From a virus, in IMG/VR virus record IMGVR_UViG_3300031673_012789: 64,000 bases of DNA, one strand, 5' to 3'. Under the pieces are notes generated by a model. It had not been told where the DNA came from. It worked only from the letters and a program-made list of their open reading frames with translations, and did no database searches. Made by a program: the position numbers and the translations under genes. This document shows, one piece after another, positions 26,483 to 26,555 of the stretch. The first letter of the stretch is position 1; each line of letters starts with the position of its first letter.

Positions 26483-26555
26483 CCCTCCCGGCCGGACTCG
26501 AACCGGCGACCTTCTGTTTTAGAGGCAGCTACTCTACCATCTGAGTTACAGGAGG
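26483..26555 (-). tRNA. tRNA with anticodon CUA (candidate amber-suppressor tRNA), 73 nt
   Basis: Reverse complement: acceptor CCTCCTG/CGGGAGG (7 bp, one G.U). D-arm ACTC-AGATGGTAG-AGT. T-arm GCCGG-TTCGAGT-CCGGC. Anticodon loop CUCUAAA centred on CUA, with a weak anticodon stem (G.A and C.A at 27:43 and 31:39). Confidence 0.5.

Follow-up and report, generated by a model that had tools for sequence, protein, structure and literature searches.

The Lak megaphages translate their genes with code 15 and encode a tRNA with anticodon CUA together with release factor 2 (RF2) (PMC6784885, PMC8346664). TAG is avoided across large parts of their genomes and used in structural regions (PMC6784885); the deepest branches among Lak-related terminases show no recoding, a tRNA with anticodon UUA is reported to be universal in Lak phages, and a passage citing Ivanova et al. 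2014 suggests disruption of host translation (PMC8346664). XacN1, a cultured jumbo phage with the standard code, carries two CUA suppressor tRNAs, whose targets were sought and not found (PMC5852040). In the model of Borges et al., low GC first makes TAG and TGA stops scarce, the phage next gains a suppressor tRNA, and recoding comes last; their example is a standard-code phage with a TGA suppressor (10.1101/2021.08.26.457843).

Here we describe a tRNA gene with anticodon CUA in 64,000 bases of phage DNA (the window), taken from the 65,489 bases of JGI contig Ga0307375_10000303 (sample 3300031669). A first-pass annotation had proposed an amber-suppressor tRNA, kinship with Lak and, by implication, recoding. 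The suppressor-type tRNA and the kinship stand; recoding is not supported, as the long ORFs of the window contain no in-frame TAG and TAG serves as a stop. In our judgement, the chances are evenly balanced that this is a functional amber-suppressor tRNA in an environmental megaphage that uses the standard code wherever it was sampled.

The window phage and the Lak phages are alike in being very large low-GC phages with many tRNA genes and a CUA anticodon, and the CUCUAAA loop is found in one of the two Lak-A1 copies as well. They differ in that the Lak suppressors are Gln-type (U1-A72, near the Lak tRNA-Gln genes) and the window tRNA is Asn-type, with C1-G72 and G73; moreover, Lak genomes encode RF2 (PMC6784885) and the window does not. 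With XacN1, a phage of Xanthomonas, it shares amber suppression in a tRNA-rich standard-code jumbo phage and an in silico read-through analysis that yields no targets, but lineage and host are unrelated and the XacN1 copies lie in terminal repeats within a tRNA array. The low GC, preference for TAA, rarity of TAG and presence of a suppressor without in-frame stops recall the example of Borges et al.; that example, however, concerns a TGA suppressor in Agate phages more than 80% identical in nucleotides to recoded relatives, whereas here the recoded Lak clade is very distant (terminase at most 38%) and the suppressor is kept across a whole standard-code clade. The anticodon loop CUCUAAA, in which A37 and A38 follow A36, is also that of Escherichia coli supF (tRNA-Tyr CUA). 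In laboratory amber suppressors, one mutation in the anticodon of a host tRNA is enough and every position of the anticodon stem is paired; the window tRNA, by contrast, needs two anticodon changes from GUU and carries mismatches at 27.43 and 31.39.

Gene content and kinship of the window phage

The window has a GC content of 32.7%, and all of its genes lie on the minus strand. Assemblies end within about 0.8 kb of its high-coordinate end and 3 kb of its low-coordinate end. It holds replication and auxiliary genes, among them a phage-type clamp loader and 5'-3' exonuclease, and no virion genes. In a tblastn search of GenBank phages, the clamp loader matched the Prevotella Lak megaphages best (48%; next best 32.5%), and ten window proteins have homologs in Lak-A1, dispersed over its genome. 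The guess of Lak kinship was therefore a good one: Lak megaphages are the nearest GenBank relatives, and the window phage is, to judge from its proteins, a distant environmental relative of Lak. Its whole genome may span several hundred kilobases, from the 340-480 kb contigs of relatives. The window also encodes a cadherin-like protein, whose type-IX secretion sorting tail is suggestive of a host in the Bacteroidota. Megablast of the tRNA region against GenBank phages gave no match, the blastn matches of the tRNA were generic tRNAs, and exact and anticodon-degenerate patterns of the CUA tRNA had no matches in IMG/VR, a collection outside which the window contig lies.

The main landmarks of the window beyond the immediate surroundings of the tRNA are as follows.

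76 to 159, minus strand: tRNA-Arg(CCG), 84 nt, anticodon at position 38
30771 to 33224, minus strand: vault-like protein of 817 aa (MVP_shoulder, 5e-27; Vault_3)
34385 to 34868, minus strand: GOLLD RNA (Rfam RF02032, 162 bits, E = 1e-43)
36077 to 38825, minus strand: array of 15 tRNA genes

The vault-like protein resembles eukaryotic major vault protein and has more than 6,500 homologs in metagenomes, many on phage-like contigs of 340-480 kb and others in 'uncultured phage' GenBank records of 462 kb and 735 kb. The GOLLD RNA contains a tRNA-like element (34726-34795) and lies about 1.2 kb from the tRNA array, which includes three or four weak tRNA-like matches in addition to its genes (38040-38091, 38124-38191, 38530-38585). 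A second array lies mostly past the low-coordinate end of the window, its first gene being the tRNA-Arg(CCG); in L014 (4278-7359), it comprises 12 tRNAs, including two for Trp and ones for Lys and Asn. The tRNA-Arg(CCG) is unusually long for class I and may have an enlarged D loop or an insertion. ARAGORN also reports tRNAs with four-base anticodons elsewhere: GTAG in L010 (39051-39124; LR745206.1, a 634-kb uncultured phage), within a tRNA array, and GACA in a similar tRNA of L031 (6414-6506).

Among the auxiliary genes on the minus strand is a set for NAD salvage and synthesis (3915-4892, 8559-9734, 12296-12943 and 13320-14204), consisting of an NMN adenylyltransferase, a nicotinate phosphoribosyltransferase, a nicotinamidase-like isochorismatase and an NAD synthase; a TonB-dependent receptor lies at 5773-7734. 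A further minus-strand set is concerned with RNA and tRNA handling (21488-23191, 48452-48901, 52869-53966, 54524-55279 and 62713-63177): a TROVE/Ro60-like protein, a Pth2 peptidyl-tRNA hydrolase, an RlaP-type nucleotidyltransferase, a Thg1-like protein, whose family repairs tRNA 5' ends, and a LigD_N-like phosphoesterase. In addition, RtcB is encoded by the relative L031. As a group, the genes suggest tRNA repair or quality control.

A well-formed tRNA with a CUA anticodon

The tRNA gene stands alone between two co-oriented ORFs, about 9.5 kb from the nearest tRNA array.

26009 to 26467, minus strand: downstream ORF, 152 aa, ending in TAG, no family match
26483 to 26555, minus strand: tRNA gene with an anticodon of the amber-suppressor type, CUA (ARAGORN, Rfam tRNA)
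26520 to 26522, minus strand: anticodon CUA, TAG on the plus strand (sequence and ARAGORN)
26552 to 26577, minus strand: hairpin in the 5' leader of the tRNA (sequence and terminator scan)
26574 to 27227, minus strand: upstream ORF, 217 aa (207 aa from ATG), ending in TGA, no family match

On the minus strand, ARAGORN places a tRNA of 74 nt with anticodon CTA at 26482-26555, and the Rfam tRNA model (RF00005) matches 26483-26555 over its full length (model 1-71) with 57.7 bits (E = 7e-10 over the whole window), above the gathering threshold of 29 bits and in the middle of the 43.8-71.5 bits of the other window tRNAs. The sequence reads, in its 5' part, CCUCCUG UA ACUC AGAUGGUA GAGU A GCUGC CUCUAAA ACAGA and continues in its 3' part as AGGUC GCCGG UUCGAGU CCGGC CGGGAGG G. 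The acceptor stem has 7 bp (CCUCCUG/CGGGAGG) with a U6.G67 wobble, the D stem is ACUC/GAGU and the T arm is GCCGG-UUCGAGU-CCGGC. Residues of the tertiary interactions are present (U8, A14, G18G19, TTC as T54-Psi55-C56, and the T loop UUCGAGU), the discriminator is G73 and CCA is not encoded. The anticodon occupies positions 34-36 of a seven-nucleotide loop with U33 (26518-26524: C32 U33 C34 U35 A36 A37 A38), as expected of an amber suppressor. These calls bear out the tRNA proposed by the first-pass annotation, down to its anatomy and weak anticodon stem: cmscan flags exactly two non-standard pairs, 27.43 (G.A) and 31.39 (C.A). The minimum-energy fold of the unmodified tRNA keeps the acceptor and T arms and loses the anticodon arm (z = -1.84). 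With three Watson-Crick pairs in the anticodon stem and a minimum-energy fold that is not a cloverleaf, suppression activity could be low.

ARAGORN labels any CUA tRNA as tRNA-Pyl, so that the label reflects the anticodon only. tRNA-Pyl has a 6-bp anticodon stem, a 3-nt variable loop and a small D loop without G18G19, and it goes with pylS and pylBCD genes. The identity was rejected because the window tRNA has a canonical D loop with G18G19, a 5-nt variable loop (AGGUC) and an anticodon stem of five positions; there are no Pyl genes among the annotated window ORFs. The G18G19 in the D loop and the 5-nt variable loop give the tRNA an ordinary elongator shape.

The TGA stop of the upstream ORF lies within the leader hairpin, a longer form of which pairs with the first 4 nt of the tRNA. 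Read on the plus strand, the hairpin is terminator-like and followed by a T run. A relative carrying an ortholog of the tRNA (L132, see below) has a different hairpin at the same place, as read by eye, and no detectable counterpart of the upstream ORF at this position.

Conservation of the tRNA across relatives

The CUA tRNA is identical in six other assemblies, which makes these copies uninformative on selection. More distant relatives were collected through the vault-like protein. That of L132 is 73% identical to the protein of the window, and L132 carries an ortholog of the tRNA that is 91% identical over 82 nt, compared with 69-74% for flanking coding DNA; the genes immediately adjoining the tRNA are not common to the two. 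Six bases of the tRNA differ, two of which form a compensatory pair in the D stem (A10-U25 in the window, G10-C25 in L132), and L132 retains both mismatched stem positions, as C27.U43 and C31.A39. The excess of tRNA over flank identity, together with the compensatory change, points to purifying selection. The conservation well above the flanks and the ordinary Rfam score also mean that the tRNA does not score as a pseudogene, the outcome on which the first-pass annotation would have given it up.

Among the 86 tRNAs near vault-like genes, CUA is the joint commonest anticodon (10). Nine close relatives have a vault-like protein with 66% identity or more and a downstream flank of 3 kb or longer; in all nine, a CUA tRNA lies 1-7 kb downstream of the vault-like gene, and gene order around it is conserved from a homolog of the window ORF w27187 to the thioredoxin and TROVE genes. 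The tRNA bodies at this locus fall into at least six families.

Family A: the window and L132
Family B: L128 (9705-9778), L129 (5087-5160), L133 (14603-14676) and L144 (12889-12962)
Family C: L137, L173 and L141
Family D: L139 and L145
Family E: L034
Family F: L009

Of the 14 CUA tRNAs compared, nine have the loop CUCUAAA, including one of Lak-A1; this loop is common to families C to F, whose bodies are otherwise unrelated. Two mismatches in the anticodon stem are found in 8 of 218 unique tRNAs, and five of these eight are CUA tRNAs of families A and B. Family B has the loop UUCUAGA (G37) and a conserved A31.C39 mismatch; its 28-42 pair is non-Watson-Crick throughout (A.G in three members, a U.G wobble in L144), and the T-stem changes between its members are compensatory. 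The CUA tRNA of L009 has two acceptor-stem mismatches. L034, whose vault-like protein is 71% identical to that of the window, also carries a tRNA-like gene with the ochre-type anticodon UUA and several stem mismatches (878-948).

An Asn-type body

With the anticodon loop masked, the window tRNA was compared with 654 unique tRNAs, 16 of them for Asn. The three nearest neighbours without a CUA anticodon are all Asn-GTT (0.79, 0.77 and 0.74) and have the same acceptor, YCUCCUG/CGGGAGR, and G73. In an alignment with the nearest Asn relatives, 95% of cloverleaf cells are paired and 12 of 21 pairs change on both sides, which none of 500 shuffles reached. The body of the CUA tRNA is thus, by sequence comparison, Asn-type and not Gln-type as in Lak. 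The G27.A43 mismatch also occurs in a canonical Asn tRNA (L239), which makes it a trait of the lineage as opposed to fresh damage and leaves C31.A39 alone as peculiar to the CUA pair.

A Trp origin, considered because CUCUAAA resembles the Trp loop CUCCAAA, was rejected since the phage's own two Trp tRNAs fall outside the 20 nearest neighbours; a Gln origin as in Lak was rejected on an acceptor and D arm unlike the Gln tRNAs of the window or Lak. Blastn of the tRNA against E. coli genomes gave just weak matches, to a plasmid tRNA-Thr and to Lys. The change from GUU to CUA takes two substitutions, with U35 alone retained. AsnRS uses the anticodon GUU as a major identity element, so charging of the CUA tRNA with Asn is doubtful.

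Standard code in the window

Greedy tiling of the minus strand yields 121 ORFs that cover 87.5% of the window and end in TAA (85), TGA (20) and TAG (16); with a minimum length of 80 aa, the numbers fall to 60, 13 and 8. TAA is strongly preferred and TAG is the rarest stop, but the statement that stops were never TAG was wrong: TAG ends 16 of 121 ORFs, including the gene directly downstream of the tRNA, in which read-through would add ten residues before a TGA. Across the 16 TAG-ended ORFs, read-through adds 0-21 residues before the next stop, and in three the second stop follows immediately or one codon later.

Reading TAG as sense lengthens none of the 14 longest ORFs, and the long ORFs of the window contain no in-frame TAG. 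The comparison of code 15 with code 11 that the first-pass annotation had proposed raises the coding density just from 0.876 to 0.895, and the recoding that it implied finds no footing in 64 kb in which TAG is a terminator and in-frame TAGs are absent. A Pfam scan of 40 window ORFs found no release factor or aminoacyl-tRNA synthetase domains, which are also absent from the precomputed Pfam calls of L001, L011 and L013. In code-15 systems, an RF2 of the phage or a dedicated synthetase is a frequent though not a universal accessory.

The whole Lak-A1 genome served as a recoded comparison. It has two CUA tRNAs and one UUA tRNA, and 1110 in-frame TAGs lie in its ORFs of 250 aa or more; per 64-kb stretch, the minimum is 49 and the median 117, compared with 0 in the window. 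The exonuclease homolog of Lak-A1 has two in-frame stops and the window copy has none. In recoded loci of the Lak clade, used as positive controls, the coding density rises from 0.60-0.76 to 0.86-0.95 with TAG as sense.

Recoding was also sought in relatives. Translated alignment was first used to screen for in-frame TAG, but most of what it picked up came from conserved genes read in the wrong frame or in antisense; a filtered screen near the vault-like gene of close relatives gave nothing convincing, mostly adjacent genes in the same frame. An in-frame stop was found in one of 96 loci with vault-like homologs (L206): a single TAG at position 1822, where eight homologs have Lys, in a vault-like gene 45% identical to that of the window; sequencing error, a pseudogene or suppression of the amber codon could account for it. 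Two candidates were discarded, namely the 'recoded' ORFs of L168, which are antisense to the vault-like gene on a contig of 72% GC and hence an artefact, and the truncated vault-like gene of L009, a frameshifted fragment and not a TAG interruption. More widely, a generic pattern of CUA anticodon arm and T arm occurs in at least 120 IMG/VR contigs, many of 300-500 kb; about 15-25% of these look code-15-like around the tRNA and most do not.

Late genes in the same samples

Late genes were approached through the Lak-A1 terminase (353295-355448; 18 in-frame TAGs by ORF count), which was used as the query to collect relatives, and 80 IMG/VR loci were compared. Eight of the ten terminases at least 41% identical to Lak have in-frame TAGs, mostly aligned with Q. 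Among the 70 that are at most 38% identical, 68 have none and two (L099 and L102) have one each; the six from the window's sampling series all belong here. Of the best 120 matches, none that is Lak-proximal (at least 37% identity) stems from the window's own samples.

One terminase, P0241, is found in samples 3300031669, 3300031578 and 3300031539 (JGI) and ERZ27256847 and ERZ27256827 (ENA), and the window phage is present in all five. Its nearest GenBank relatives are Lak phages at 35-38%. The 22-kb P0241 locus encodes, among others, tail-fibre-like genes, the terminase and a tail sheath, and is 96% coding under code 11, with intact ORFs of up to 1108 aa; the 1108-aa gene ends in TAG, and the locus has no in-frame TAG. 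The locus is tied to the window by co-occurrence across samples and by shared nearest relatives, and no physical overlap was found between terminase contigs and the window. Correlation of GC and tetranucleotides was tried as a link and dropped, since all candidates were alike, as was P0091, the sole JGI-sourced Lak-like terminase of a first list, which came from an unrelated sample. The sampled DNA thus amounts to about 86 kb, 64 kb certain and 22 kb linked by co-occurrence, without capsid, portal or lysis genes. In-frame TAGs, a gain in density and disuse of TAG as a terminator, the marks of code 15, are not seen in these 86 kb. With TAG serving as a terminator and in-frame TAGs absent from both the window and the co-occurring late-gene locus, recoding is unsupported, and the window contig should be called with code 11.

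Interpretation

We infer from its conservation above the flanks that the tRNA may be expressed, charged and able to suppress. The gene would probably be co-transcribed with both of its neighbouring ORFs and excised by RNase P and 3' processing enzymes of the host; the unencoded CCA would come from a CCA-adding enzyme, and a host aminoacyl-tRNA synthetase would charge the product. The charged tRNA would then compete with release factor 1 at UAG. Phage genes ending in UAG, roughly 10-13% of the total, would gain C-terminal extensions of 0-21 aa, and any host genes ending in UAG the same kind of extension, with no decoding of in-frame UAG. Such a mode of action would fit the pre-recoding stage that Borges et al. 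propose for low-GC relatives of recoded phages, when a suppressor is already there and UAG, though rare, still terminates, as well as the unexplained CUA suppressors of standard-code jumbo phages such as XacN1. The conservation of a UAG decoder across the clade nevertheless argues that some UAG codons need decoding, which a standard-code genome leaves unexplained.

That tension lends some weight to the alternative that the tRNA serves recoding of the code-15 type, with in-frame TAGs in late genes (capsid, portal, lysis) elsewhere in the genome and the window a standard-code block of early and auxiliary genes that supplies the suppressor. We consider this the likeliest of the alternatives, though still unlikely. 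Lak, the nearest GenBank relative, itself avoids TAG in large parts of its genome and uses it in structural regions (PMC6784885); the window, with replication and auxiliary genes and no virion genes, could be such a part, the suppressor locus in 9 of 9 close relatives speaks for a need to decode UAG, and a code-15-like appearance around the tRNA is seen in about 15-25% of the IMG/VR contigs that have a comparable CUA anticodon arm. Yet every 64-kb stretch of Lak-A1 has at least 49 in-frame TAGs and the window has none, a difference repeated in the exonuclease (two in-frame stops in Lak, none here), and the co-occurring locus with terminase, sheath and tail-fibre genes is free of in-frame TAG, with TAG serving as a stop. 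The best 120 terminase matches include no Lak-proximal one (at least 37%) from the window's samples, TAG is an ordinary terminator in a window that lacks RF2 and tRNA synthetases, and the tRNA body is Asn-type where the Lak suppressors are Gln-type.

The weak anticodon arm raises the further alternative of a decaying or barely active duplicate of tRNA-Asn, drifted in anticodon and anticodon stem and with no decoding role. Two mismatches in a 5-bp stem, a combination seen in just 8 of 218 unique tRNAs, the loss of the arm from the minimum-energy fold (z = -1.84), the two acceptor-stem mismatches of the L009 tRNA and the phage's many redundant tRNA genes and weak tRNA-like matches are all consistent with decay. 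We think it improbable, given a tRNA conserved at 91% against flanks of 69-74% with a compensatory D-stem change, an ortholog that retains both mismatched positions, the presence of G27.A43 in the Asn tRNA of L239 and a Rfam score ordinary for the window. Across the clade, moreover, the anticodon and loop are kept at the locus though the bodies differ, and retention of CUA on differing bodies is not the behaviour of a drifting pseudogene. About as improbable is a suppressor directed chiefly at the host or at specific read-through targets, lengthening UAG-ended host proteins as part of takeover or giving extended isoforms of a few phage proteins. The host disruption suggested in the Lak passage already cited, the conservation of the locus without visible recoding and the Thg1-like, Pth2, TROVE/Ro60-like and RlaP-type genes of the window would suit such a role, but the longest extension of any TAG-ended window gene is 21 aa, and the authors of the XacN1 study likewise found no targets (PMC5852040).

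Beyond the single gene, the favoured reading of a functional suppressor under the standard code can be extended, tentatively and with less than even confidence, to the clade: megaphages with the vault-like protein may keep an amber suppressor at one locus under the standard code, with bodies that are repeatedly replaced or remodelled. In this same tentative picture, the tRNAs would comprise at least six families, two with conserved double-mismatched stems, and that of the window would be built on tRNA-Asn. If true, this would mean a selected role in UAG decoding other than genome recoding, candidates for which are tuned low-level read-through, interference with host termination and a long-lived pre-recoding stage; another possible meaning is that UAG is assigned to an amino acid other than Gln. 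The clade-wide conservation and the Asn-type body are the parts of most note for follow-up.

Suppressor tRNAs are routinely taken as a flag for recoding, and here a well-conserved CUA tRNA lies within 64 kb of plainly standard-code phage DNA, so that the flag alone is unreliable. If the whole genome is unrecoded, the clade would offer many natural cases of a suppressor without recoding, as in the nine of nine close relatives, and would inform how the genetic codes of phages start to shift and what function such tRNAs have, a question that XacN1 left open.
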